Below are positions 5,866-20,040 of a DNA stretch of 23,401 nt, one piece after another; within the stretch, counting starts at the first letter, position 1, and each line of letters begins with the position of its first letter. Under the pieces are notes generated by a model that saw only the letters and a list, made by a program, of their open reading frames with translations, was not told the origin of the DNA and made no database searches. Source of the stretch: a virus (taxonomy: Duplodnaviria; Heunggongvirae; Uroviricota; Caudoviricetes). Position numbers and translations under genes: made by a program. The stretch covers positions 1 to 23,401 of the IMG/VR virus record IMGVR_UViG_2667528074_000003. One strand, 5' to 3'.

Positions 5866-7038
5866 TTACCGGGCTGCAGAAATCGCCGTTTTTCCATCGT
5901 ATTCTGCAAGGTAAGAGCCGTAATGTCTGAACAGCATTTCCGGTCCTTTGTGCCCCATCTGACCAGCCAGCCAGAACAGGTTAACGCCCTGGCTAATGTG
6001 CCGAGTGGCGAACGTATGGCGTGTCTGGTACGGATTGCGATAACGTACACCAGCCTTTTTAAGGGTCGGTACCCAGGCTTTTTTGCGGATCGCATCTGCG
6101 TTTGCCCAGGGAGCTCGAGTTTTCGGATCGCTGAATATGAAGTCGCTTTTTAGCGCCGTGTAGGGCTTTTGTGCCTGAAGAGCTACCAGCGCTTCGTTGT
6201 TCAGTTGTACTTTGCGAGTACCGGCTTTTGTTTTGGTACTTTTGATTACCCCGACTACGCTTGCAGTCTGGACATGTGCTGTGTTGCCGATGAAGTCTAT
6301 ATCTGTCCAGCGCAACGCGCACAATTCCGAGCTGCGTAGTCCGGTATTAAAGGCGAAACGAAACAGATTTTGCCATTCCGGGTAATGACAGGCGTCATAG
6401 ATTGCTGCTGTCTCTGCTGGCGTAAAAGGATCGACCTCGTAATCATCACTGCCTGGTGTGTTGTCCAATACGTGATACCGGCTGGCGCTGACCAGCGTGA
6501 CAGGATTTATTGTTAACAAACCATCGGTCACCGCTTCATCTATGGCGCTGCGCAGAAATGAAAGATTATTGCGGATCGTTTTCAGTTTTGTTTTTCTGCT
6601 GGCGATCCAGTTTTTGAGTACTGCAGGTGTCAGTTCTGATACATGAAATTTATGCAGTGCTGACAGTGCAGACAGGCATTTTTCATACCCTTTAATTGTC
6701 GATGGCGACAGGTTACGGTTCTGGCAGATAGTCAGGTATTCATCCAGGTAAGATTTTATATTTTTGTTTTTTTTCACTCCCCCGAACAGCTCCAGCTTTT
6801 GGGAGTTGGGGAAGTATTTTGCATATTCGAAGGTACCACCGATAATCTGATTTTTTATTTCTCCCAGCAGACGCTCGGCATACTTCACACCGCGCGCGTT
6901 TACTTCCATTCTGGAGAGGGGCTCCCGACACAGAACCCCTTTATATGTAAAAGTGATAACCAGAGTGCTACCAGTTTTATGCTGGCGAATAGTTACTCCT
7001 CTAGGGAGAGATAATGATCCTTGTTCTTTCTTGCCCAT
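5866..7038 (-). CDS. int: tyrosine site-specific integrase (lambda Int family)
   Basis: 390 aa; C-terminal catalytic region with RHTFATRHISQG and LAGQMGHKGPEMLFRHYGSY (conserved His/Arg and catalytic Tyr); GGAG RBS; adjacent to att core and transcribed toward it. Confidence 0.9.
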   Translation of the reverse strand: MGKKEQGSLSLPRGVTIRQHKTGSTLVITFTYKGVLCREPLSRMEVNARGVKYAERLLGEIKNQIIGGTFEYAKYFPNSQKLELFGGVKKNKNIKSYLDEYLTICQNRNLSPSTIKGYEKCLSALSALHKFHVSELTPAVLKNWIASRKTKLKTIRNNLSFLRSAIDEAVTDGLLTINPVTLVSASRYHVLDNTPGSDDYEVDPFTPAETAAIYDACHYPEWQNLFRFAFNTGLRSSELCALRWTDIDFIGNTAHVQTASVVGVIKSTKTKAGTRKVQLNNEALVALQAQKPYTALKSDFIFSDPKTRAPWANADAIRKKAWVPTLKKAGVRYRNPYQTRHTFATRHISQGVNLFWLAGQMGHKGPEMLFRHYGSYLAEYDGKTAISAAR

Positions 7039-8046: not shown

Positions 8047-8874
8047 TTATTTAATCTGGATAAATGGTGTATTGGCACCACTGGTCATGTATTGCGGCAG
8101 TGTACCGTTCCACTTGTTGATGGCTTCCAGTTCCATGACGCCTGGGTTCTGGCGCAGAGCTTCGCCGCGTAAACGAATGGCATCGGCTTCTGCCTGGGCT
8201 TTTGTACGAATCGCATCAGCCTGTCCGGCAGCTTCCGCGCGCAGCATGTTGGCTTCCGCTTCGCGCTGTTTTACTTCCTGCTCGCGTTGCAGGGTTTTCT
8301 GGTTCGCCGTGACTTTGGCATTAATGCTGTCGATAACGGTTGGCGGGTATTCCGGCTTACCCACATATGAGAGGCTCATTACCTGAATACCAATGGGTGT
8401 CATTTCTTCCTGAATGTCTTTGAGAGCTGCATCCAGAAGTTCAGACTTACCGCCGTCGATAAATTTGTCGGTGGTCATTTTGCTGGCCAGTCGGTTGAGT
8501 GCATCTGCGATCTTCTGGCGCAGGTCTGTGTCGGTAATGTCATCCACGCCTTTGCGGTAGGTCTGAAACACCGTGGTAACTTTGGATGGATCAACTTTGT
8601 AGGCCACACCGATGTGATAGCCGATGGTTGTACCGTCACTCATCTGGAAACTGAACGGTTCATCGTAGGTCTTCATTTGTTTGAAGGTGGGGAAGATATA
8701 AACTTCAGTATTCCAGCCAGTCCAGTAGCGACCAACACCGACCACCTCACCGACGCCTTTGTCGTCGCCCAGTTTATTTACCTTGATGCCAACATTACCT
8801 GGTTCAACGCGATCGCAACCGACAAGGCCAATGGTCGGAATAACAATGGCTAAAGCAAAAATAACTTTTTTCAT
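8047..8874 (-). CDS. SPFH/band-7 (stomatin-prohibitin-flotillin-HflK/C) domain lipoprotein
   Basis: 275 aa; N-terminal signal with lipobox (MKKVIFALAIVIPTIGLVGC); SPFH-like core; C-terminal Ala/Glu/Arg/Gln-rich coiled coil (QREQEVKQREAEANMLRAEAAGQADAIRTKAQAEADAIRLRGEAL); AAGGA RBS; ATGA overlap with the upstream gene. Confidence 0.8.
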   Translation of the reverse strand: MKKVIFALAIVIPTIGLVGCDRVEPGNVGIKVNKLGDDKGVGEVVGVGRYWTGWNTEVYIFPTFKQMKTYDEPFSFQMSDGTTIGYHIGVAYKVDPSKVTTVFQTYRKGVDDITDTDLRQKIADALNRLASKMTTDKFIDGGKSELLDAALKDIQEEMTPIGIQVMSLSYVGKPEYPPTVIDSINAKVTANQKTLQREQEVKQREAEANMLRAEAAGQADAIRTKAQAEADAIRLRGEALRQNPGVMELEAINKWNGTLPQYMTSGANTPFIQIK

Positions 8875-11200: not shown

Positions 11201-11890
11201 CTAACCAAATCTGTTTATATTGAATGGTACTGATGAGATCACTTTAGACTGGATATAAAGCAGAGCTAACCCCTCTTTTTCGATGCTCCATGGTTGATAA
11301 TTGGGGTTATCAGATAACACCATGATTTTGCTTCCAATTTTTTGAAGTCTTTTCACGTAGCATTCTCCATCAAAACAAAATGCATAAATGCCATCGCCAT
11401 CAAAATAAGTTACTGTCTTATCAAGAAAAAGAAGGTCGCCAGGTGAGATTGTGGGAGCCATACTGTCTCCTCTGGCGTTGCCTATTTCTATATTTTTAAA
11501 TGCTCGGTTTCCAACAAGACGACGGGCATATTCAGGATCAAGTTCTATTGAGCGTACTACATCTATAAAGTCTCCGCGGACATGGGTCCCATTACCGCAA
11601 CTAAATTCAACGTCAAGTACATTAAACACGACGCTATCTGTTCTTGCCTGATGTTTCTCTTGCGAAGAGAAGGTTGGTGAGGTGTCTTCACCTAAGAACC
11701 AGGATTGTGGATAACCGCTAATCTCTGATAACTGCGCAAGCTTATCGCTCCGTGGAAATGTTTTTCCTGTGGTCCAGTACTGCACTGATTGCGCACTCAC
11801 CCCCAGCTTACGGGCCAGCTGAGCCTGAGTCCATCCTTTTGCTTTCAGCATTGCGGCTATTCTATTTTCTGTGTTTTTGACGTTCTTCAT
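11201..11890 (-). CDS. cI: CI-type prophage repressor (N-terminal HTH plus C-terminal S24/LexA-like autopeptidase)
   Basis: 229 aa; HTH WTQAQLARKLGVSAQSVQYW; S24 motifs GDSMAPTISPGD (Ser nucleophile) and CYVKRLQK (Lys); divergent from a cro-like gene. Confidence 0.85.
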   Translation of the reverse strand: MKNVKNTENRIAAMLKAKGWTQAQLARKLGVSAQSVQYWTTGKTFPRSDKLAQLSEISGYPQSWFLGEDTSPTFSSQEKHQARTDSVVFNVLDVEFSCGNGTHVRGDFIDVVRSIELDPEYARRLVGNRAFKNIEIGNARGDSMAPTISPGDLLFLDKTVTYFDGDGIYAFCFDGECYVKRLQKIGSKIMVLSDNPNYQPWSIEKEGLALLYIQSKVISSVPFNINRFG

Positions 11891-12023: not shown

Positions 12024-12296
12024 ATGAAAGGAAATGATTACGACGAACTTCGTGCATTAATTGCGCAAAATGCCATAGCGCGAAATCTTGGTGTGACACC
12101 GCAAGCGGTGAATCAGTGGTTTTCAAAAAGCACAATTCCTGCTCGTTTCGTTTTACGGGTATGTGAGGTGGTTGCATGGAAGGTTACGCCTCATGGCTTA
12201 AGGCCAGATCTTTACCCTCACCCTGAAGATGGAATTCCTGATTCGTTACGCAAAACATCAAATCCAAGCTTAGCGCACACGGGGGAGGGGAGGTAA
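12024..12296 (+). CDS. cro: Cro-like small HTH regulator (YdaS/Cro type)
   Basis: 90 aa, divergent from cI; HTH-like LGVTPQAVNQWF; RBS GGTGA 6 nt upstream. Confidence 0.7.
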   Translation: MKGNDYDELRALIAQNAIARNLGVTPQAVNQWFSKSTIPARFVLRVCEVVAWKVTPHGLRPDLYPHPEDGIPDSLRKTSNPSLAHTGEGR

Positions 12297-13129: not shown

Positions 13130-13441
13130 ATGCTTAACATTAGCAGCACTCAAAAATTAGTCAACCCTTCAGATCCTGTTGGACAAATTCCGGTCGAACA
13201 GTGGTACAGAAGAACGTACGTGGTTTCAGAGTACGCCCGCACTTATACCGAGACAATTATCGGAAAGGCCAAATGCCCCTGTTCCGCAGCTGTGAATGGT
13301 GCGATGGCAATACGTAACGCCAATCCTTCGGTTTTATCCATCCGTTTTATAAGTATTGAGCAGCTTTCTCCTGAAGAAGGAGAGGCCAGCGAGCGCGCCC
13401 TTAACGCCTGGTTTGAGAAACATCCTGAGGAGATTGAATGA
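13130..13441 (+). CDS. hypothetical protein (103 aa) coupled to the downstream Rha-like gene
   Basis: ATG 13130 (the track TTG at 13124 is less likely); stop overlaps the ATG of gene 13438-14148. Confidence 0.5.
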   Translation: MLNISSTQKLVNPSDPVGQIPVEQWYRRTYVVSEYARTYTETIIGKAKCPCSAAVNGAMAIRNANPSVLSIRFISIEQLSPEEGEASERALNAWFEKHPEEIE

Positions 13442-14148
13442 TGAACACCGCAATTTTTAACGACAAAGTATCCATGACCAGCGTTGAAATCGCAGAGCTG
13501 GTTGGAAGTCAACACGGCAATGTCAGAATATCAATAGAGCGTCTGGCAAAACGCGGGGTGATTCAACTTCCTGCAATGCAAAAAGTTGAGAACGAACAAT
13601 CATTTAGCCAAAACAAATTCACAAACGCATATATTTTCGAAGGCGAACAAGGCAAACGCGACAGCATCATTGTCGTCGCACAACTTTGCCCGGAATTCAC
13701 TGCCCGCCTGGTAGATCGTTGGCGCGAACTGGAAGAGCAGGTGCGCAAACCAATGAGCGAAATCGAAATGGTTGCCGCGATGGCTCTTGAAGTAGTTCGT
13801 CAGCAAAAACGCCTCGACAAGATGGAAGAAAAAGTTAGCCACGTTGCCGAAACTGTCGAACAAATCAAAAGAGGCACCATACGCGATGGTTATGCAGGAT
13901 ACCGTCAGCTGGTGGCGAAAACAGGTATGTCAGATGCTAAATGCCGCAATCTGGTGAACGCATATCAGATCCCTACCGACACCCATGAATTTATGACGCC
14001 AGACGGATTATTGTCTCGTCGCGCGATTGTTGCAGTAGAACCCTTCATGTTTGCTTTTCATCGCATGATGAGTGAAGCAGAACCACGAGGTACTCGCTGG
14101 TATCACCCGAAAATGGGCCTGTTTCAGGCGCTGGGCTGGCAGGTGTAA
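13438..14148 (+). CDS. phage regulatory / antirepressor-like protein with N-terminal Rha-type DNA-binding region
   Basis: 236 aa; N-terminal MTSVEIAELVGSQHGNVRISIERL ... RWRELEEQ resembles the N-terminus of phage Rha/antirepressor proteins as I recall them; C-terminal half unassigned. Confidence 0.65.
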   Translation: MMNTAIFNDKVSMTSVEIAELVGSQHGNVRISIERLAKRGVIQLPAMQKVENEQSFSQNKFTNAYIFEGEQGKRDSIIVVAQLCPEFTARLVDRWRELEEQVRKPMSEIEMVAAMALEVVRQQKRLDKMEEKVSHVAETVEQIKRGTIRDGYAGYRQLVAKTGMSDAKCRNLVNAYQIPTDTHEFMTPDGLLSRRAIVAVEPFMFAFHRMMSEAEPRGTRWYHPKMGLFQALGWQV

Positions 14149-14362
14149 TTATGCTCACAGGTAACACATGCAAGTACTCAATCGCTGGTTCCGCGATGGC
14201 AGAGGGCGTCGCGTCCACGTTATACACTGGGAGTCTGAAACACAGCGGGTCATTTACCTGCGTGATGGTTATTCGCATGAATGCTTCAGTCCGTTGTGGT
14301 TGTTTCGTCGTGATTTTGTGGAGTGTGAAGCGCCGCCAGAGTGACGGCGTAATGGTGGAAAC

Positions 14363-14671
14363 TTACACGAAGCGGATCTGGAGTTTTTTTCCTGTTGCGC
14401 GGGCAAATTTTTTCAGTGTGGAAAATGATGGTCCACTGACACCTGACGCCAGATTACTTTCCATTCTGCTGATGACAGTTGCTTTGGTTCCCATACGCTC
14501 AGCGATCTCAGCTTGGGTTAAACCAGCTTCTTTACGTGCTGCCAGCATTTCATCAAGCAACGCAAATTCGTCGGCGATGGCGTCGTATTCTGCTTTAAAA
14601 GCTGGATCCTCCATCCATTTATCAGCCATTTCATCATGTGTAATGGTTGGCGGATTACGTTTACCAGTCAT
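14363..14671 (-). CDS. HigA-like antitoxin (XRE HTH)
   Basis: 102 aa with HTH GLTQAEIAERMGTKATVISRMESN; immediately downstream of and overlapping (11 nt) the toxin gene, the toxin-first order typical of HigBA modules. Confidence 0.8.
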   Translation of the reverse strand: MTGKRNPPTITHDEMADKWMEDPAFKAEYDAIADEFALLDEMLAARKEAGLTQAEIAERMGTKATVISRMESNLASGVSGPSFSTLKKFARATGKKLQIRFV

Positions 14672-14990
14672 GCTTTACCTCCTTCATTCTGGTTTCAGCT
14701 TTTTGGCGTTCGGCTGGTGGGGTTTTCTGGGTCTTCTTGATGAAACTATGCAGCATGATGATGCGTTTTCCTGCCAGGGTGCAGTAAAAGACGCGTGCGA
14801 TGCCATCACTACCTTTAATCCGAAGCTCGAAAAGCCCGTTACCGAAAGCACTGGTATGAGGTTCTCCGAGATTGCTGCCGTATACCTTCATGCGTTCAAC
14901 AAGATGCTGGTATCGGGCACGCATACTCAATGGAAGCTGGTCGACCTCCAGCCTGACCTCTTCACTGTAGTATTCGATAGTGTAGTTCAT
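14661..14990 (-). CDS. HigB/RelE-superfamily toxin (phage gp49-like mRNA interferase family)
   Basis: 109 aa; characteristic motifs NGLFELRIKGSDGIARVFYC and IMLHSFIKKTQKTP. Confidence 0.8.
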   Translation of the reverse strand: MNYTIEYYSEEVRLEVDQLPLSMRARYQHLVERMKVYGSNLGEPHTSAFGNGLFELRIKGSDGIARVFYCTLAGKRIIMLHSFIKKTQKTPPAERQKAETRMKEVKHDW

Positions 14991-14996
14991 GAGTTA

Positions 14997-15020
14997 AAAC
15001 ATAACAAAATGGTTATGTTT
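14997..15020. promoter_or_regulatory. palindromic operator candidate upstream of the toxin gene
   Basis: Perfect 9-bp inverted repeat AAACATAAC-N6-GTTATGTTT ending 7 nt before the toxin start codon; overlapped by a TTGTGC-17-TATGTT promoter-like element on the minus strand. Confidence 0.4.
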
Positions 15021-15671
15021 GCACAATATATTGATTCTGCAATTTCGGGACGTTACACTGTTCCAGCACCTTATAAAGCGGGTGCCGGGATTTGCACCCC
15101 GGAATTGCATACGGCGATATATGACGCGCCAGCGTCTTTTTTATCGTCCGCGCTCACGCACGCCAGAATTATGGTGGGCTGGGTAGGGGAGCCGAAAGGC
15201 TCGCCGGTTTCCGTATGCGCCGGTAGTGCAAACCCTGTTCAGTCCGCCACCAGCGAGATTTGCACCTCCGGTGGTGGAAGTTATCCATTGCATACGGAGG
15301 CTGCCATCATGGCTACAGTCCCAACTTCCCCATTCCTCAAAATTGAGATCGTCAACGGTAAGGCCGTTATTTTTTCCCTGCATGTTGCCTGCCACTTCAA
15401 GCGCATGCACCAGAACATCGTTGACAAAATCGAGTATCTGAACTGCTCGCGTGAATTTTTTACCCGCAATTTCATTCCGGGTACTTATCACATCTATGGT
15501 GACTCTCTGCGTGGTTATTACATCACCCTTGATGGTCTGATGATGCTTCAGCTTGGGTTAAGTCTGCGCACAATGCGGTACTACGAGAGCTGTATTGATG
15601 CATTCCATGAAGCTGAAACCGTCCAGGTACATTCCGCTTTCCGTCGTCATCAACGGGAGGTGCACCTATGA
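15009..15671 (+). CDS. Rha-domain phage regulatory protein, tandem paralog 1 (start uncertain)
   Basis: C-terminal ~110 aa carry a Rha-like winged-helix pattern (SLHVACHFKRMHQNIVDKIEYL ... YYITLDGLMMLQLGLSLRTMRYYESCIDAFHEAE). ATG 15009 has no SD; an internal ATG at 15309 has a GGAGG RBS. The frame stays open upstream only because it is antisense to the TA genes. Confidence 0.55.
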   Translation: MVMFAQYIDSAISGRYTVPAPYKAGAGICTPELHTAIYDAPASFLSSALTHARIMVGWVGEPKGSPVSVCAGSANPVQSATSEICTSGGGSYPLHTEAAIMATVPTSPFLKIEIVNGKAVIFSLHVACHFKRMHQNIVDKIEYLNCSREFFTRNFIPGTYHIYGDSLRGYYITLDGLMMLQLGLSLRTMRYYESCIDAFHEAETVQVHSAFRRHQREVHL

Positions 15672-16333
15672 TCCGCTACCTGAATATTGATTCTGCACTT
15701 TTGGAACGTTACACTGTCTCTGCACCTTATAAAGCGGGTGCCGGGCGTGGAAACCCGAAATTCAATATAGAGCACAACCGCGCTCATGCGGTTTTTTCGT
15801 GTCATGAGCATTGCTACGCCCAAATTATGGTGGGGCGTGCAGGGCCAACTTCGGTTGGGCCGGGTTCTATGTTGACCGGTATTTCCACCCCTGTACGTCT
15901 CACCACCTATATGGTCGTGGAAAGCCTTGGTGGTGAGTTCTTTGAATTCAACATAGGGGCTGTCACCATGACTACCACCACTACCCACCCATTCCTCAAA
16001 ATTGAGATTATTAACGGTAAGGCCGTTATTTTCTCCCTGCATGTAGCCTGCCATTTCAAGCGCATGCACCAGAACATCGTCGACAAAATCGAGTACCTGA
16101 ACTGCTCGCGCGAATTTTTCACCCGCAATTTCATACCGGGTACTTATCACATCTATGGTGACTCTTTGCGAGGTTATTACATCACCCTTGATGGCCTGAT
16201 GATGCTTCAGCTTGGGTTAAGTCTGCGCACAATGCGGTACTACGAGAGCTGTATTGAAGCATTCCATGAGGCAGAAACCAGCGTGAATCATACCGCTTTT
16301 CGCCGTAATCAATGGGAGGCGCGCCATGTGTAA
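15668..16333 (+). CDS. Rha-domain phage regulatory protein, tandem paralog 2
   Basis: 221 aa; ATG overlaps the stop of paralog 1 (ATGA) and is preceded by GGGAGGTG; the C-terminal domain is nearly identical to paralog 1 with mostly synonymous differences. Confidence 0.65.
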   Translation: MIRYLNIDSALLERYTVSAPYKAGAGRGNPKFNIEHNRAHAVFSCHEHCYAQIMVGRAGPTSVGPGSMLTGISTPVRLTTYMVVESLGGEFFEFNIGAVTMTTTTTHPFLKIEIINGKAVIFSLHVACHFKRMHQNIVDKIEYLNCSREFFTRNFIPGTYHIYGDSLRGYYITLDGLMMLQLGLSLRTMRYYESCIEAFHEAETSVNHTAFRRNQWEARHV

Positions 16334-16559
16334 TAACCATTATTCAGACACCTCTGTTACGGTAATTAAAACCCTGATGGATGCACTGATTGACATCTCT
16401 GTTATCGCAGATATGGCGCATAAACACGCCACCAGTGAAACAGAATATGCCGGGGCTGTCGTTCCTCACTCACTGGCTGTTATGCAAATTAGCGCCGATC
16501 AGGCGCTGGAAACAGCCAGCAAAATGCTCATGGCTGATGTGCGGGAGGTACATCCATGA
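16326..16559 (+). CDS. hypothetical protein (77 aa)
   Basis: Start overlaps the end of the upstream gene by 8 nt; part of the coupled operon leading into the replication genes. Confidence 0.5.
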   Translation: MCNNHYSDTSVTVIKTLMDALIDISVIADMAHKHATSETEYAGAVVPHSLAVMQISADQALETASKMLMADVREVHP

Positions 16560-16780
16560 TTCGCCGCCTCGTTAATTCTCTGTATCACCGATACAACTGT
16601 TGCCCCCGTGTGGGGCAGTGGATTGCCACCAGCAACGGTCACGTTCTGCGGGTTTGCCTGGTCAGCACCGAAAGCCAGAAAGTTGTGTGTGAATTACTGG
16701 GGCGTAACTACACCATTAGCTATCCGTTGATGGCGTTTCAGTCCGGAAAAATGTTTAAACGCCTGGGAGGTGCCGTGTGA
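16556..16780 (+). CDS. hypothetical Cys-containing small protein (74 aa)
   Basis: ATGA overlap with the upstream gene; several Cys (CCPRVGQW, CLVSTESQKVVC); stop overlaps the GTG start of the replication initiator. Confidence 0.5.
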   Translation: MIRRLVNSLYHRYNCCPRVGQWIATSNGHVLRVCLVSTESQKVVCELLGRNYTISYPLMAFQSGKMFKRLGGAV

Positions 16781-17754
16781 GCCGGTTAATTAAATTGCTT
16801 GATCGCCCGATTGCTTACAATCCGGCTTTTGCAAAGCTGAAAGCAGGAAAAGTGCGATCGGGGCCGGTTGCGGCTGTTTTTCTTTCACAGCTTGTCTACT
16901 GGCATAACCGTATGGATGGTGGCTGGATGTATAAAACCCAGTCCGATATTTTAGCAGAGACAGCATTAACCCGCGATGAGCAGGAAACTGCGCGTAAGCG
17001 CCTTGTTGCGCTTGGTGTTCTGGAAGAAAAGCTACGTGGTATTCCTGCCATTATGCATTACCGGATTAATACTGAACGGCTTGAAGCACTGCTGATTGAA
17101 CAGGTAAAACCTGATACGAAGGCTGACAGCAACGAGTCCAGCGCCGCAAATATCAAGAATGTGGGAACGCCGCAATCTGAAGCAGGGCAATACCGCGAAC
17201 AAGTTTGTGGAAACCCCGCAAACTGTGGTGTGGAAACACCGCAAACAGTGATGCGGGATCACCGCAAACCGTCATGTGGAAACCCCGCAAACATTCATAC
17301 AGGAGATTACACAGAGAATACTCATGAGATTACTCATGAGACTAAAAACACTATTGGCGCATCCGCTGACGCGTCTGCACCAGCGCGTTCTGCCCGACAA
17401 GAATATTCACCGGAATTTGAACAGGCCTGGCAGGAATACCCCAAACGTGCTGGTGGTAATTCCAAGTCGGCAGCCTTTAAAGCCTGGAAAGCCCGAATCA
17501 GGGAAGGTGTGACACCCGAAACCATGCTTGATGGCGTGAGGCGTTATGCCGCCTGGGTACGTGCCACAGGAAATACCGGCACACAATTCGTGAAGCAGGC
17601 CGCGACGTTTTTTGGACCCGATCGTCACTTCGAAGATTTCTGGCAACAGCCAGCCGCTCCCGGAGGTGGGCGACAGCGACAGATAGATATCCTGTCTGGT
17701 CTTGGTGCCATGTCTGACGAATTCGGTAAATCCAGTGACAACTTAACATTCTGA
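16777..17754 (+). CDS. replication initiation protein (lambda O-like), with origin iterons inside the coding sequence
   Basis: 325 aa; GTG start with GGGAGG RBS; N-terminal winged-helix-like region similar in pattern to lambda O; central linker encodes six phased direct repeats; followed by helicase loader and helicase genes. Confidence 0.75.
   Translation: MSRLIKLLDRPIAYNPAFAKLKAGKVRSGPVAAVFLSQLVYWHNRMDGGWMYKTQSDILAETALTRDEQETARKRLVALGVLEEKLRGIPAIMHYRINTERLEALLIEQVKPDTKADSNESSAANIKNVGTPQSEAGQYREQVCGNPANCGVETPQTVMRDHRKPSCGNPANIHTGDYTENTHEITHETKNTIGASADASAPARSARQEYSPEFEQAWQEYPKRAGGNSKSAAFKAWKARIREGVTPETMLDGVRRYAAWVRATGNTGTQFVKQAATFFGPDRHFEDFWQQPAAPGGGRQRQIDILSGLGAMSDEFGKSSDNLTF
17170..17292. 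repeat. replication-origin iterons: six direct repeats with core CCGCAAAC at exact 23-bp spacing
   Basis: Core 8-mers at 17170, 17193, 17216, 17239, 17262 and 17285 (variants CCGCAATC, CCGCGAAC); best copies TGTGGAAACCCCGCAAAC; followed by an AT-rich stretch (17293-17345). Confidence 0.7.
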
Positions 17755-17764
17755 GGTGACAGCG

Positions 17765-18643
17765 ATGATGACGTTTAACCTGCGTGAACAACAAACAAGA
17801 CTACAGGCGCGGATGGATGAGTTACGGTCTGAGATGGCGTTTGCGGAGACTGGGGAAAAACCGTGGCCTTATCGTTCCTGCCGGATGTGTGAAGGTCGCG
17901 GATATTGCGAAAAACATGGCGAATATCACACGCATATTCTGGTGTGGGGGGATCGTAATGGCGAGGACAGAGAGAAAATTTCACACTGTCCTCACTGCCT
18001 GAGTGCTGAAATCAACGATGTGATTATGGAGTTGTCGTCCCTGAAGGCGGAAGAACTGACTGATAACGCCGGAATTGCACTGCGTTTTCGTGACTGTGAG
18101 TTTGAAAACTATCAGGAGATTAATCCTGACGCAGCCAGAAATCTTGCTGCCTGTCGTCGCTATGCCGAAAACTGGGCGGATGTTCTGGAGAATGGCACAA
18201 ATCTCGTGCTGACTGGCAGTTGTGGCACCGGTAAAAATCACCTGGCGGTTGCGATGGCAAAATATGTCATCCGCAACTATCTCGCCAGTGTTGAGATCAC
18301 CGACGTGATGCGCCTGACCCGGGCTGTGAAAAACTGCTGGCGGAATGACAGCGAAAAAACTGCGGATGAGGTGATTGAGCATTATGCATCACTGGATCTG
18401 CTGATTATCGACGAAGTGGGTGTCCAGTTTGGTAGCGCGGCGGAAATGGCCATTCTTCAGGAAATTATCAATGCCCGGTACGAAAGTATTCTGCCAACCA
18501 TCCTGATCAGCAATCTTTCACCGAAGGCGTTGTGGGCATACATCAGTCCACGTATTGCTGACAGGGTTACGGATGGTGGCCGTAACCTGTTGTCCTTCAA
18601 CTGGCCCAGCTACCGGGCACATACCGGAGGTGTGGCAGCATGA
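17765..18643 (+). CDS. DnaC-like helicase loader (AAA+ ATPase) with N-terminal Cys-rich region
   Basis: Walker A LTGSCGTGKNHLAVAMA (DnaC-type GTGKNHL), Walker B LLIIDEVG; CxxC...CPHC cluster near the N-terminus; RBS GAGGTGA before ATG 17765 (track GTG at 17756 is an alternative). Confidence 0.85.
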   Translation: MMTFNLREQQTRLQARMDELRSEMAFAETGEKPWPYRSCRMCEGRGYCEKHGEYHTHILVWGDRNGEDREKISHCPHCLSAEINDVIMELSSLKAEELTDNAGIALRFRDCEFENYQEINPDAARNLAACRRYAENWADVLENGTNLVLTGSCGTGKNHLAVAMAKYVIRNYLASVEITDVMRLTRAVKNCWRNDSEKTADEVIEHYASLDLLIIDEVGVQFGSAAEMAILQEIINARYESILPTILISNLSPKALWAYISPRIADRVTDGGRNLLSFNWPSYRAHTGGVAA

Positions 18644-20040
18644 TCAGCCAGAACAGTCCGGTCTGGCGTAACGATGATCTGGAAGGTGCTGTTATTGGCG
18701 CATTCTTTTTGCGTGGGGCAGATCCGGAAGTGATGGATATTCTGGCCACACTACCGGCGGACGTTTTTTCTGTACGACCGTACCGGGATATCTACACAGG
18801 CATCTGCAGACAGGCCCGTGTGTCCGGCGTGATTGATCCTGTGCTGTTGTGCAATGAGATGCCGGAACTTGCCCCGGTGATTACTGATACCGGGCGTAAA
18901 ACCTGGGTGAAGTCATCTCTGGAACACTATGTTGCAGCACTGCGACGCAATGCCGCACTGCGTGATGCAGAAAAAACACTGGCCGAAGCATTGCAGAAAT
19001 TACGTGATGCGCATACCTGTGAAGCAGCTGAAGATGCCCTGAAGGATGCTCAAAACATGATGGTCTCATTGTCGACCGAAAAGGGCATTATTCAGCCTGT
19101 ACACATTGATGATGTACTTCCGGAGGTGGTTGACCGTGTTGAATGCCGGAATCAGGGGCTGGAGAAATCCAGGACGTTGATGACCGGTATTGATGAGCTG
19201 GACGCAAAAACAGGAGGCATGGAGCCCGGCGACCTGATATTCATCGCGGCGCGCCCTTCGATGGGGAAAACAGAACTGGCGCTGGATATCATCGACAAAG
19301 TGACTGAACAGGGGCGCGGTGTTCTTCTGTTCACAATGGAAATGGCGAACATTCAGATCGGTGAACGCATGGTGTCTGCTGCCGGAGGAATGCCTGTATC
19401 GCGCCTGAAATCTGTCTCTAACTTTGGTGACGAAGACTGGGCGCGTTTCATTAAGGGTGTGGAGCTGATGACCGGACGCAATATCTGGATGGTGGACCAG
19501 GCGAACCTGACCATTGACGAGATATGCGCAACAACGAAACACCATTTGATTAAACATCCGGAAACGGCACTGGTGGTGGTTGATTATCTCGGGCTGATAA
19601 AAACCCGAACCACGGGGCGTCATGACCTTGCCGTGGGTGAAATCTCAAAGGGACTTAAAGGCCTGGCAAAATCCGGTGGTTTTCCGTTGATTGCGCTGAG
19701 CCAGCTTTCCCGCAGTGTGGAGTCCAGACCAAATAAACGTCCCATGAACTCAGACCTGAAAAATTCCGGAGAAATAGAGGCGGATGCTGACATCATTCTG
19801 ATGCTTTACAGGGATGAAGTGTACAACCCGGATACGCAGGCCAGGGGCATCGCAGAAATTAATATCACGAAGCAACGTAATGGTTCTCTGGGGACGATTT
19901 ACCGACGTTTTTATAACGGACATTTTCTGCCCGTAGACCAGGAAAGCGCACAGGTTCTTTCTACACCAATGCAGCCGTCCAGACCGCGAAGATACAGTAA
20001 CAAACGAACTGACAGCAGTAAGATGGAGCGTTTCTTTTGA
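18640..20040 (+). CDS. DnaB-family replicative helicase
   Basis: 466 aa; DnaB-like N-terminal domain; Walker A ARPSMGKTELALDI; ATGA overlap with the DnaC-like gene. Confidence 0.85.
   Translation: MISQNSPVWRNDDLEGAVIGAFFLRGADPEVMDILATLPADVFSVRPYRDIYTGICRQARVSGVIDPVLLCNEMPELAPVITDTGRKTWVKSSLEHYVAALRRNAALRDAEKTLAEALQKLRDAHTCEAAEDALKDAQNMMVSLSTEKGIIQPVHIDDVLPEVVDRVECRNQGLEKSRTLMTGIDELDAKTGGMEPGDLIFIAARPSMGKTELALDIIDKVTEQGRGVLLFTMEMANIQIGERMVSAAGGMPVSRLKSVSNFGDEDWARFIKGVELMTGRNIWMVDQANLTIDEICATTKHHLIKHPETALVVVDYLGLIKTRTTGRHDLAVGEISKGLKGLAKSGGFPLIALSQLSRSVESRPNKRPMNSDLKNSGEIEADADIILMLYRDEVYNPDTQARGIAEINITKQRNGSLGTIYRRFYNGHFLPVDQESAQVLSTPMQPSRPRRYSNKRTDSSKMERFF

Follow-up and report, generated by a model that had tools for sequence, protein, structure and literature searches.

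Why two adjacent prophage genes should be nearly identical in their 3' halves and strongly diverged in their 5' halves, and yet keep one reading frame and almost one length throughout, is the question raised by positions 15009-16333 of the window, the 23,401-nt stretch of viral DNA that we analysed. The locus consists of two long, eta-like ORFs on the plus strand, both open from end to end. ORF 1 (15009-15671, 220 aa) holds a promoter, an IsrK-type gene, a C4-type gene and a nested ORF in a single frame, and the start of ORF 2 (15668-16333, 221 aa) overlaps the stop of ORF 1 in an ATGA at 15668-15671. Comparison of the ORF core (15333-15617) with its counterpart in unit 2 revealed 94% identity, with differences distributed 2/0/15 over the three codon positions (15 of 17 in the third), leaving 14 codons changed synonymously and 2 non-synonymously. 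The 5' halves were only about 60-70% identical, each with a conserved promoter and terminator, and identity by block was 69% in isrK, 38% in the spacer, 59% in C4 and 50% from C4 to the internal ATG. Differences in these upstream blocks were spread evenly over codon positions (8/9/7, 11/12/13 and 7/12/8), and the two 5' halves differed by 3 nt in length. The mosaic described in the original prediction, near-identical 3' halves with mainly third-position differences behind 5' halves that had diverged while keeping frame and length, was thus reproduced. Two readings had been offered for it, two-domain proteins with a fast-evolving N-terminal module or short Rha genes behind structured leaders; the second stood, with isrK and C4 as the leaders, and the first did not. 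We consider it highly probable that each unit is an RNA switch of the P1-immI/P4-immunity type nested in an 'Ash-Rha' reading frame.

The promoter-like element noted earlier, TTGATT-17-TACACT, lies inside each 5' half on the plus strand, at 15031-15059 in unit 1 (-35 TTGATT 15031-15036, 17-nt spacer, -10 TACACT 15054-15059) and at 15687-15715 in unit 2 (TTGATT 15687-15692, TACACT 15710-15715). A consensus promoter scanner did not list it, its agreement with the sigma-70 consensus being a weak 8 of 12 positions, and support was instead taken from conservation in homologues. In 40 distinct upstream sequences of homologous cassettes, TACACT was present in every one and TTGATT in 39, and conservation was absent from the region 5' of the hexamers. 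In unit 1 this putative IsrK/PLE-type promoter ends 6 nt ahead of the first base of a match to the Rfam family isrK (RF01394), which covers 15066-15142 on the plus strand with 63.7 bits; the corresponding match in unit 2 covers 15722-15798 with 61.6 bits, both above the gathering score of 50. Each sequence contains two 5' hairpins followed by an intrinsic terminator, as well as copies, termed a1 and b1, of the C4 targets described below. In unit 1, a1 occupies 15090-15097 (AUUUGCAC) in the loop of IsrK hairpin 2 and b1 occupies 15105-15114 (UUGCAUACGG), and in unit 2 the copies lie at 15746-15753 (CGUGGAAA) and 15761-15770 (UUCAAUAUAG). The hairpins with T tracts and different stems reported earlier were both recovered by a terminator scan, which found 6 terminator-like sites across the region against 1.7 expected. 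The first is formed by a hairpin at 15123-15136 with a T run to 15142, and the second by a hairpin at 15776-15793 with a T run to 15798. The motifs described earlier as promoter-like and terminator-like would be the promoter and terminator of IsrK. Transcription from its own promoter, Hfq binding and trans-activation are known for IsrK only from Gifsy-1, and are predicted here.

Downstream of each IsrK-type sequence we found a full-length match (1-87 of 87) to the C4/CI-type antisense RNA family (RF01695), at 15167-15254 in unit 1 (80.5 bits) and at 15823-15910 in unit 2 (82.4 bits), both on the plus strand, against a gathering score of 45; over both units, the E values of the isrK and C4 matches ranged from 1e-11 to 4e-15. 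The conserved AUG at the 5' end of the C4 RNA corresponds to ATG1, at 15171-15173 and 15827-15829, respectively. Minimum free energy folds of both units gave the family structures, with a long P1 helix of C4 enclosing two hairpins. The 5' halves had been proposed for a covariation analysis, and across 21 homologues 99.8% of cells in the three C4 helices were paired, with 8 pairs (56 cells) changed on both sides, compared with at most 2 doubly changed pairs in slid controls. The b' element of the first C4 RNA forms the 12-nt loop of P3 (15208-15219, UUUCCGUAUGCG) and its a' element the junction (15225-15232, AGUGCAAA), and the same elements of the second lie at 15864-15875 (GUUCUAUGUUGA) and 15881-15888 (AUUUCCAC). 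C4 of P1 and P7 is a substrate of RNase P, which cuts its precursor (PMC2190699). Release of C4 from a longer precursor by RNase P, and repression in trans, are predicted for this prophage.

The a' and b' elements are complementary both to a1 and b1 and to a second pair of sites between C4 and the internal ATG. In unit 1, site a2 (15258-15265, plus strand) repeats AUUUGCAC and pairs with a' at -8.3 kcal/mol (RNAduplex), and site b2 (15289-15300, UGCAUACGGAGG) is complementary to b' and contains the Shine-Dalgarno sequence GGAGG at 15296-15300. In unit 2, a2 (15917-15923, GUGGAAA), part of a class A3 triple, likewise pairs at -8.3 kcal/mol, and b2 (15948-15959, UCAACAUAGGGG), part of a class B2 triple, includes the purine-rich ribosome-binding site. 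The pairing codes of the two units differ, being A5/B1 in unit 1 and A3/B2 in unit 2. The b' element of unit 1 paired with its cognate b2 at -16.7 kcal/mol and with the target of the second copy at -7.9 kcal/mol, and b' of unit 2 gave -12.1 kcal/mol with its own b2 and -6.7 kcal/mol with the first-copy target; over all b pairings in the window, cognate energies ranged from -12.1 to -16.7 kcal/mol, compared with -6.7 to -9.6 kcal/mol for cross pairings. Given the different codes, at least the b interaction is likely to be orthogonal between the units. For the a-box the separation is not clean, since a' of unit 2 can also form a duplex of -8.8 kcal/mol with the conserved GGUGGUGGAA in unit 1. 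Comparison with homologues firmly supports the predicted layout, in which a conserved internal promoter precedes an IsrK-type sRNA (the class of c4-a1b1 and SeqA) ending at an intrinsic terminator, followed by a C4/CI-type RNA whose a' junction and b' loop are complementary to a1/b1 and to a2/b2, with b2 covering the Shine-Dalgarno sequence of the internal ATG.

We then examined the codes over a set of 131 cassettes, which reduced to 78 unique leaders and from which the sites were taken by MAFFT alignment and column extraction. These leaders fell into 6 a-classes and 12 b-classes, observed in 23 combinations, and the three sites of each set (a1/a'/a2 and b1/b'/b2) shifted together with a single exception, L090, which carries a non-cognate b1. 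The cognate partner was the best partner for b1 in 12 of 12 classes, for b2 in 12 of 12, for a1 in 7 of 7 and for a2 in 6 of 7, and the mean pairing energy of b2 over classes was -18.2 kcal/mol for cognate and -8.0 kcal/mol for non-cognate pairs. In all aligned cassettes b2 overlapped the Shine-Dalgarno sequence of the nested ORF.

The nested ORFs start at the internal ATG (ATG2) and encode the Rha-like domain alone, nested ORF 1 at 15309-15671 (120 aa), with a Shine-Dalgarno sequence and the third-position substitution pattern, and nested ORF 2 at 15968-16333 (121 aa), both on the plus strand. Profile searches with nested ORF 1 matched PHROG 995 (E = 5e-56) and PHROG 518, 'Rha-like' (E = 1.5e-13). 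Scores for Phage_pRha (PF09669) were 27.8 and 28.8 bits, below the cutoff of 29.9, and those for TIGR02681 were 35-38 bits, below the cutoff of 45.95, though covering positions 3-101 of 108. The earlier label 'Rha-like' therefore holds at the level of PHROG 518 and not at the Pfam and TIGR02681 cutoffs, and the nested protein is best described as a divergent Rha relative and not as a scored member of the family. The gene at 13438-14148 barely reached the Phage_pRha cutoff (30.0 against 29.9), and, the two short proteins being sub-threshold, the proposed count of three Rha-type regulators applies only loosely. The start context of nested ORF 1, GGAGGCTGCCATCATGGCTACA, is identical to that of P4 kil, and the ORF occupies the position of kil in P4 and of icd-ant in P1. 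Antirepressor activity of the 120-aa protein is assumed from its family context. Both nested ORFs contain, 45 nt in, a hairpin followed by a T run that resembles a terminator.

If the leaders specify RNAs, the long frame that crosses them has to be explained. The layout is that of eta/kil in both units, 15009-15671 containing 15309-15671 and 15668-16333 containing 15968-16333. Variable leader columns showed no bias by codon position in either of two sets (21/22/20 and 30/34/32), and none of 78-79 unique leaders carried an in-frame stop. Distinct stop sites in homologous leaders numbered 0 in the leader frame and 19 and 18 in the other two, a sample of related sequences for which the nominal (2/3)^37 overstates independence. 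In the 131-cassette set the distance from ATG1 to ATG2 was always 138 or 141 nt, a multiple of 3, and in class A6 leaders indels of -1 and -2, separated by 27 nt, compensate each other, the roughly 10 residues between them being replaced by unrelated ones. Of 61 further phage cassettes, 56 had an ATG1 frame of 108 codons or more, and the other frames extended for 14-83 codons, with two outliers of 100 codons or more. In the enterobacterial phage cassettes the frame thus appears to be selected for openness without selection on the peptide, as for eta/kil, and the P4 precedent accounts both for the stop-free leaders and for the long ORFs in the ATG1 frame. We dropped a purely non-coding leader, with the long ORF as an annotation artefact, on the 0 stops in 78-79 leaders and the 56 of 61 long ATG1 frames. 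We likewise rejected the idea that every C4 locus has an open frame; of 60 C4 loci from diverse Proteobacteria (Pseudomonas and others), 17 had a stop inside C4, and a frame of the same type reached at least 100 codons in only 15, compared with 7 in each of the other frames. Openness of the frame is therefore a feature of the clade of enterobacterial phage cassettes and not a rule of the C4 family.

Both long ORFs score above the 26-bit gathering cutoff of Pfam Phage_ASH (PF10554), with 52.9 bits for ORF 1 (aa 16-107) and 34.9 bits for ORF 2 (aa 15-104), and PGAP-style annotation names such ORFs 'ash family protein'. Together with a frame that is open in every homologue, where indels keep phase, so that the polypeptide is probably made under some conditions, these matches are what would favour a two-domain protein, with a fast-evolving 'Ash' N-terminus under diversifying selection, for instance for the binding of different repressors, joined to a conserved Rha domain and the RNA matches incidental. 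We regard this as very improbable, given that substitutions are equally frequent at all codon positions, that a protein model predicts neither compensatory base pairs nor three-site complementary sets, that the compensating -1/-2 indels scramble the peptide, and that the frame is often closed in distant relatives. In P4, the same Pfam family spans the 'cI' ORF (aa 22-85, overlapping the C4 match), which lies over the CI RNA gene, and the immunity factor there is an RNA according to the passages on P4 immunity in PMC4825925 and PMC10111431. In P4 as in the window, PF10554 falls on translated isrK and C4 RNA genes, and membership is therefore uninformative on protein function. The grain of truth in the protein-module reading is the frame, which none of the homologues that we examined closes or shifts; the fast-evolving module itself we reject. 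We regard as equally improbable an ordinary recent tandem duplication, in which the 5' halves drifted, the 3' halves were held by purifying selection or gene conversion and no separate regulatory specificity arose. The units are indeed adjacent, head to tail, equal in length and 94% identical in their cores, and in recurrent arrays two or three units repeat every 656 nt. However, divergence follows a pattern: the promoter, hairpin 1, the C4 helices and the ribosome-binding site are kept, and the a and b boxes switch coherently between classes. The halves also have separate histories. Each leader of the window has relatives of 97.5-97.9% identity in other phages; those of leader 2 (97.9%) precede a different gene (62% identical), and nested ORF 2 has a 99.2% identical counterpart in L117, where it follows an A1/B6 leader 79% identical to leader 2. 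Leader and ORF thus appear to be separate modules that recombine between phages and assort independently, and the mosaic would arise because they exchange modularly, not because of unequal rates after one duplication.

A further possibility is that the RNAs are real and act mainly as P4-style termination controllers of the downstream replication genes, with the Rha ORFs as passengers. The passages on P4 in PMC4825925 and PMC10111431 state that CI RNA prematurely terminates the replication operon, the cassettes lie directly upstream of small ORFs and O-like, DnaC-like and DnaB-like genes, and each nested ORF has the hairpin with a T run near its start. We think this reading very improbable too. 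In every case b2 covers the Shine-Dalgarno sequence from which the nested ORF would be translated; P1 shows the same arrangement, and there translational repression comes first. Main immunity is supplied by a CI-like LexA-type repressor and a Cro-like protein. The two mechanisms are, moreover, not exclusive, blocked translation leading to termination in both P1 and P4.

What we propose for the nested RNA switch as to transcription start, processing, repression, activation by IsrK and long-ORF translation is taken over from P1, P4 and Gifsy-1. By analogy with these systems, read-through transcripts would be processed, with RNase P acting at the 5' end, to release C4, which would bind a2/b2 and block translation of the nested ORF, probably with premature transcription termination. 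IsrK, carrying the same target sequences, would compete for C4 and activate translation in trans, so that the IsrK:C4 balance would set antirepressor output. Transcripts from an upstream promoter would be translated straight through the module, as for P4 eta, and the long ORF would be kept open for this reason, with selection on openness of the frame only and not on the peptide. Ribosomes in transit would keep the RNAs from folding and transcription from terminating, so that expression would escape RNA immunity. In P4, long-ORF translation reportedly depends on the upstream promoter alone and prevents termination, and we predict the same here. Through the ATGA overlap, translation of the second long ORF would be coupled to that of unit 1. 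Immediately upstream of unit 1 lies a divergent toxin-antitoxin pair; with no obvious upstream gene for translational coupling, the eta-like bypass may fail there. Directly downstream of the cassettes are overlapping small ORFs, followed by the O-like, DnaC-like and DnaB-like genes, and elsewhere the prophage encodes the CI-like repressor (at 11201-11890) and the Cro-like protein of its main immunity.

Comparison with known systems placed these units closest to the immunity regions of P4, P1 and Gifsy-1. In the passages of PMC10111431 devoted to P4, the immunity region is given as PLE - seqA - cI (CI RNA) - seqB/seqC with nested eta/kil (Forti 1999); eta translation occurs from the upstream promoter alone and prevents termination, and Kil is the truncated form. 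Homology to P4 extends at the DNA level along the whole leader in a seqA-cI-kil alignment, with Rfam matches to isrK and C4 in identical order, matches to Phage_ASH in both and a BLASTP E value of 2e-7 between long ORF 1 and P4 eta. In P4, a 214-aa ORF at 8168-8812 on the minus strand spans isrK and C4, and its nested 65-aa end begins at the homologous ATG; in both, the long ORF begins upstream of an internal constitutive promoter and the nested in-frame gene has an identical SD/ATG context. The a-box of P4 corresponds to class A6 of the prophage cassettes. P4 differs in that it is a satellite with one unit, an insertion between seqA and cI and a 65-aa Kil as the nested product, whereas here a lambdoid prophage with its own CI/Cro immunity carries two units in tandem, with different codes and 120-aa Rha-like domains. 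Termination at timm in P4 is Rho-dependent.

The immI operon of P1 and P7 is laid out, according to Citron and Schuster (1990) and the GenBank annotation of P1, as P51 - a1 b1 - c4 - a2 b2 - icd - ant1/ant2. The order P51/-10, a1, b1, c4, a2, b2, start codon recurs in our units with spacing preserved nearly nucleotide for nucleotide, the units align in sequence with a1b1-c4-icd of P1, b2 overlaps the ribosome-binding site and the C4 covariance model matches both; the P1 GenBank annotation describes translational repression as the primary event in P1. Specificity set by variation of a' and b' resembles the heteroimmunity of P1 and P7 (PMC12197685). In contrast to our units, the P1 ORF that crosses c4 stops before icd without an in-frame fusion, and the controlled genes are icd and the large Ant1/2. 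P1 also has no IsrK-type terminator, for which reason Rfam finds c4-a1b1 (RF03163) and C4 in P1, and isrK and C4 in P4 and here. The Gifsy-1 locus of Salmonella is arranged as isrK - orf45 (STnc1160) - anrP - isrJ, IsrK acts in trans on its own read-through transcript to activate translation, STnc1160 is an RNA of about 80 nt processed from the 'orf45' region, and orf45 must be translated from its first AUG for anrP to be expressed (Hershko-Shalev et al. 2016, PMC4825925). Features that our units share, or are predicted to share, are an IsrK sRNA with terminator, read-through into a downstream antirepressor-like gene, the ~80-nt RNA at the position of C4, and conserved nucleotides with variable amino acids; orf45 has its first AUG at about +107, and ATG1 here lies at +106 counted from 15066, where the isrK match begins and the transcript would start. 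Unlike the present frame, which is fused in phase over 138/141 nt, orf45 (45 codons) ends in AUGA on the anrP start and is translationally coupled to it, and Gifsy-1 has another downstream gene and a single unit, with no tandem pair. In PICIs of Gram-negative bacteria, the relevant passages of PMC10111431 place Rfam C4/isrK matches inside Phage_ASH, Phage_pRha or other genes of the Bro network and read them as immunity RNAs; those elements are satellites, and these passages contain neither pairing-code classes nor differently coded tandem units nor frame statistics.

Tandem neighbours differed in code in 10 of 10 arrays, which is the chance expectation given 23 combinations and carries no weight in our reading. 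In the literature on ash family proteins and on C4 RNA with an antirepressor, we found no tandem, differently coded units; the mechanism is already known, and the tandem pair with different codes is a modest new element. Cassettes matching those of the window occurred in 1375 of 5426 complete E. coli genomes. It is possible, although we advance it only tentatively, that E. coli lambdoid prophages carry a combinatorial library of orthogonal C4/IsrK codes (at least 6 a x 12 b classes, 23 combinations), stacked as 2-3 differently coded units before near-identical Rha-domain genes, with a leader of dual use that would give two RNAs from the internal promoter and serve as a sequence-indifferent open spacer for transcripts from upstream. 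If so, stacking could keep the antirepressor inducible despite a matching C4 RNA supplied in trans by a co-resident prophage, or, conversely, could let the prophage shut off antirepressors belonging to several kinds of incoming phage. The label 'ash family protein', carried by hundreds of RefSeq E. coli genomes, would hide two regulatory RNAs and a shorter true start, and P1 c4, P4 CI/eta/kil and Salmonella IsrK, usually treated apart, would be one module, common in lambdoid and Stx-type prophages. Its code classes and differently coded tandem units suggest RNA-level cross-talk or heteroimmunity among co-resident prophages, which, if so, would bear on the induction of Shiga-toxin phages.

The original prediction described two tandem ORFs (15009-15671 and 15668-16333), and both were present, with near-identical 3' halves whose core was 94% identical, the differences falling mainly at third codon positions (2/0/15; 14 synonymous codons and 2 non-synonymous), and strongly diverged 5' halves whose individual blocks were 38-69% identical, the differences between unit 1 and unit 2 being evenly distributed across codon positions. 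It had left two readings, a fast-evolving N-terminal module or short Rha genes preceded by structured leaders, and the second proved correct, as the 5' halves matched the Rfam families isrK and C4. The isrK matches (RF01394, gathering score 50) lay at 15066-15142 in unit 1 (63.7 bits) and 15722-15798 in unit 2 (61.6 bits), and those to C4 antisense RNA (RF01695, gathering score 45) at 15167-15254 (80.5 bits) and 15823-15910 (82.4 bits), all four exceeding the gathering scores. Minimum-energy folds of the window units reproduced both family structures, and in the C4 helices of 21 sequences 99.8% of cells were paired, with both-sided changes in 8 pairs (56 cells) vs at most 2 pairs with slid partners.

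The predicted TTGATT-17-TACACT promoter (15031-15059 and 15687-15715) and hairpin with T run (15123-15144 and 15776-15797) were likewise found in both units, and this "terminator" is the IsrK terminator. The promoter ended 6 nt 5' of the first isrK-match base and, scoring 8/12 against consensus, was not called by the promoter scanner. Among 40 distinct sequences upstream of homologous cassettes, TACACT was kept in all 40 and TTGATT in 39, with no conservation further upstream. Each C4 carries a conserved AUG at its 5' end (15171, 15827) and is followed by a Shine-Dalgarno sequence and ATG (GGAGG at 15296-15300 with ATG 15309; AGGGG with ATG 15968) that start nested ORFs of 120 and 121 aa, within which all the conserved, third-position-variable sequence lies. 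A further terminator-like hairpin (AACGGTAAGGCCGTT), with a T run after it, was observed 45 nt inside each nested ORF (15354-15368 and 16012-16028, plus strand) and was kept in all short-Rha-type cassettes found, even in variants with altered stems. It may be an attenuator dependent on nested-ORF translation, in a position comparable to P4 timm.

A 21-nt segment of IsrK hairpin 1, used to scan viral contigs, recovered 120 loci, which together with the window gave 131 cassettes and 78 unique leaders. From these we extracted, by alignment column, the sites a1 (loop of IsrK hairpin 2), b1 (immediately 3' of hairpin 2), b' (loop of C4 helix P3, 12 nt), a' (C4 junction), and a2 and b2 (3' of C4). 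The sites covaried, forming 6 a-classes and 12 b-classes in 23 combinations with one exception. By RNAduplex, the cognate partner was best in 12/12 classes for b1, 12/12 for b2, 7/7 for a1 and 6/7 for a2, and mean b2 duplex energies were -18.2 kcal/mol for cognate vs -8.0 kcal/mol for non-cognate pairs; b2 contained the Shine-Dalgarno sequence in every case. The window units belong to classes A5/B1 (unit 1) and A3/B2 (unit 2), with b-box duplexes of -12.1 to -16.7 kcal/mol for cognate and -6.7 to -9.6 kcal/mol for cross pairs. The a-box was less clean, since unit 2 a' can pair with a conserved GGUGGUGGAA of unit 1 at -8.8 kcal/mol. The exception, viral contig L090 (cassette at 589, minus strand), combines a class B2 IsrK b1 (CAAUAUAG) with class B5 b' and b2; it is a natural recombinant whose IsrK decoy would mismatch its own C4 loop.

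The same organization is known from phage P1, whose record annotates P1c4, a1, b1, c4, a2, b2 and icd, then ant1/ant2; element order and nearly every spacing of P1 immI are as in the window units. Rfam detected c4-a1b1 and C4 on P1 and isrK and C4 on P4, and the leaders of the window units, P1 and P4 could be aligned over their whole length. The supplement of Weinberg et al. 2010 (PMC2864571) describes the c4 motif and an upstream "c4-a1b1" motif and proposes competition of a1/b1 with a2/b2 for C4, and RNase P uses the C4 RNA of P1/P7 as a substrate (PMC2190699). In Gifsy-1, short IsrK activates translation of its own read-through transcript in trans (Hershko-Shalev et al. 2016, PMC4825925); processing of the "orf45" region, in which nucleotides but not amino acids are conserved, yields an ~80-nt RNA, STnc1160, and expression of the antirepressor-like anrP needs translation from the first orf45 AUG at +107 (PMC4825925). 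The window C4 AUG lies at +106 from the first isrK-match base, the inferred start.

We first assumed that the long ORF was an annotation artefact, which was ruled out by its stop-free frame, spacing and compensating indels. Across the unique leaders, the internal-ATG frame had 0 stops from transcription start to ATG, and the other two frames had 19 and 18 distinct stop sites; the C4 AUG was always 138 or 141 nt from the internal ATG. Class A6 leaders lack 1 nt in a' and, 27 nt further 3', another 2 nt; the second deletion returns the frame to phase, and the stretch of peptide between the two is replaced. Variable leader columns showed no preference for any codon position (21/22/20 and 30/34/32), and therefore selection does not act on the leader amino-acid sequence. 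Another scan of viral sequences, by a C4 structural pattern, added 61 unique cassettes that have other IsrK hairpins, of which 56 had a C4-AUG ORF of at least 108 codons; other frames spanned 14-83 codons, bar two outliers of 100+ codons. On viral contig L299 (C4 at 10300, plus strand), the C4-AUG ORF of 43 codons ends in ATGA on the next start, the Gifsy-1 orf45 arrangement and not an in-frame fusion. Among 60 C4 loci from diverse Proteobacteria, collected with a model built in this analysis, the frame was often closed, with a stop inside C4 in 17/60. As judged from these sequences, the open frame is a feature of the enterobacterial phage clade.

By analogy, the open frame would be explained by the eta/kil arrangement of P4. 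A 214-aa P4 ORF, 8168-8812 (minus strand), has its start 5' of the internal promoter, covers both RNA matches (isrK and C4) and ends in a 65-aa part from the homologous ATG; the start context of kil, GGAGGCTGCCATCATGGCTACA, is identical to that of the unit 1 nested gene. According to Forti et al. 1999 as summarised in PMC10111431, the long ORF is eta and kil is the gene nested in it; termination of transcripts that start at the internal constitutive promoter gives rise to CI RNA, Kil synthesis requires read-through, and full-length Eta is translated only from an upstream promoter, coupled to the preceding gene, its translation preventing termination. The ATG of the unit 2 long ORF overlaps the unit 1 stop (ATGA, 15668-15671), which would provide the same kind of coupling.

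Leaders and ORFs had separate relatives. Leader 2 shared 97.9% identity with leaders in L011, L015 and L119, viral contigs where a different, longer Rha-type gene follows it (62% identical to ORF 2), and ORF 2 was 99.2% identical to an ORF of contig L117 behind an A1/B6 leader (leader 79% identical); leader 1 was 97.5% identical to that of L051. Leader and ORF are therefore separate modules, which on these relationships are exchanged by recombination at two conserved junctions, the promoter and the start codon, and the separate relationships ruled out unequal rates after a single duplication as the source of the mosaic. Genes behind such leaders include the 120-aa Rha-like type, an ~185-aa Rha type and one for an unrelated protein of 77 aa. 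Tandem arrays of 2-3 complete isrK-C4-ORF units (period 656 or ~865 nt) occurred in nine other IMG/VR prophage contigs (L016 with three units, L003, L011, L037, L039, L050, L084, L100, L117), adjacent units always being unlike in a-class or b-class. A second C4, preceded by a different IsrK hairpin, is also present in L010, L031 and L057.

The nested proteins scored below the Pfam and TIGRFAM Rha cutoffs with near-complete domain coverage and matched PHROG "Rha-like" (E = 1.5e-13); by these matches they are divergent Rha-domain proteins. Pfam Phage_ASH (PF10554) matched ORF 1 residues 16-107, exactly the IsrK-C4-b2 region, and in P4 the old "cI gene product" CDS, overlapping the Rfam C4 match. 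In PGAP annotation the long ORFs are called "ash family protein"; on P4 (L241, 8168-8584, minus strand) and in the window (15009-15330, 15668-15990) both Phage_ASH and this name thus cover RNA genes, isrK/seqA and C4/CI, in conceptual translation. The window cassettes were matched by 1375/5426 complete E. coli genomes.

The window comes from an E. coli chromosome, the ypjA region being 100% identical to the left flank, and by gene content carries a lambdoid prophage: an integrase (5866-7038, minus strand), a CI-like repressor whose C-terminal part is of LexA/UmuD type (11201-11890, minus), a Cro-like gene (12024-12296), a Rha-family gene (13438-14148), the two Rha-like cassette ORFs (plus), two small overlapping ORFs, an O-like putative replication initiator (16777-17754, plus), and DnaC-like (17756-18643) and DnaB-like (18640-20040) genes. 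Between the Rha gene and cassette 1 sits a divergent pair of RelE/HigB-like toxin (Gp49/DUF891) and HTH_3 antitoxin (14363-14990, minus). A 506-codon ORF in the cassette frame (14151-15671, plus), perhaps open by chance, starts 3 nt after the Rha stop codon and runs antisense through this pair; L037 and L073 have similarly long extensions upstream. Iteron-like 18-nt repeats TGTGGAAACNCCGCAAAC with 23-nt spacing (17160-17292, plus) inside the initiator ORF are probably the phage origin. Overlapping stops and starts (ATGA, ATGTGTAA and others) at 15668-15671, 16326-16333, 16556-16559 and 16777-16780 form a chain from ORF 1 through ORF 2 and the two small unknown ORFs to the initiator gene, suggesting that translation of the replication genes is coupled to that of the cassettes.

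In the literature compared, we found no tandem complete units with different pairing codes, no pairing-code repertoire of this size and no population evidence for an open leader frame without peptide constraint. The element families and mechanism were known already from P1 immI, P4 immunity and Gifsy-1 IsrK. In PICIs, Rfam C4 and isrK detect CI/seqA relatives inside Bro-network genes (PMC10111431), of which the window ORFs are the lambdoid counterpart. The original observation is thus confirmed, its elements being members of known families whose mechanism is of the P1 immI, P4 immunity and Gifsy-1 IsrK type, with each functional step in the window units expected to proceed as in these relatives.
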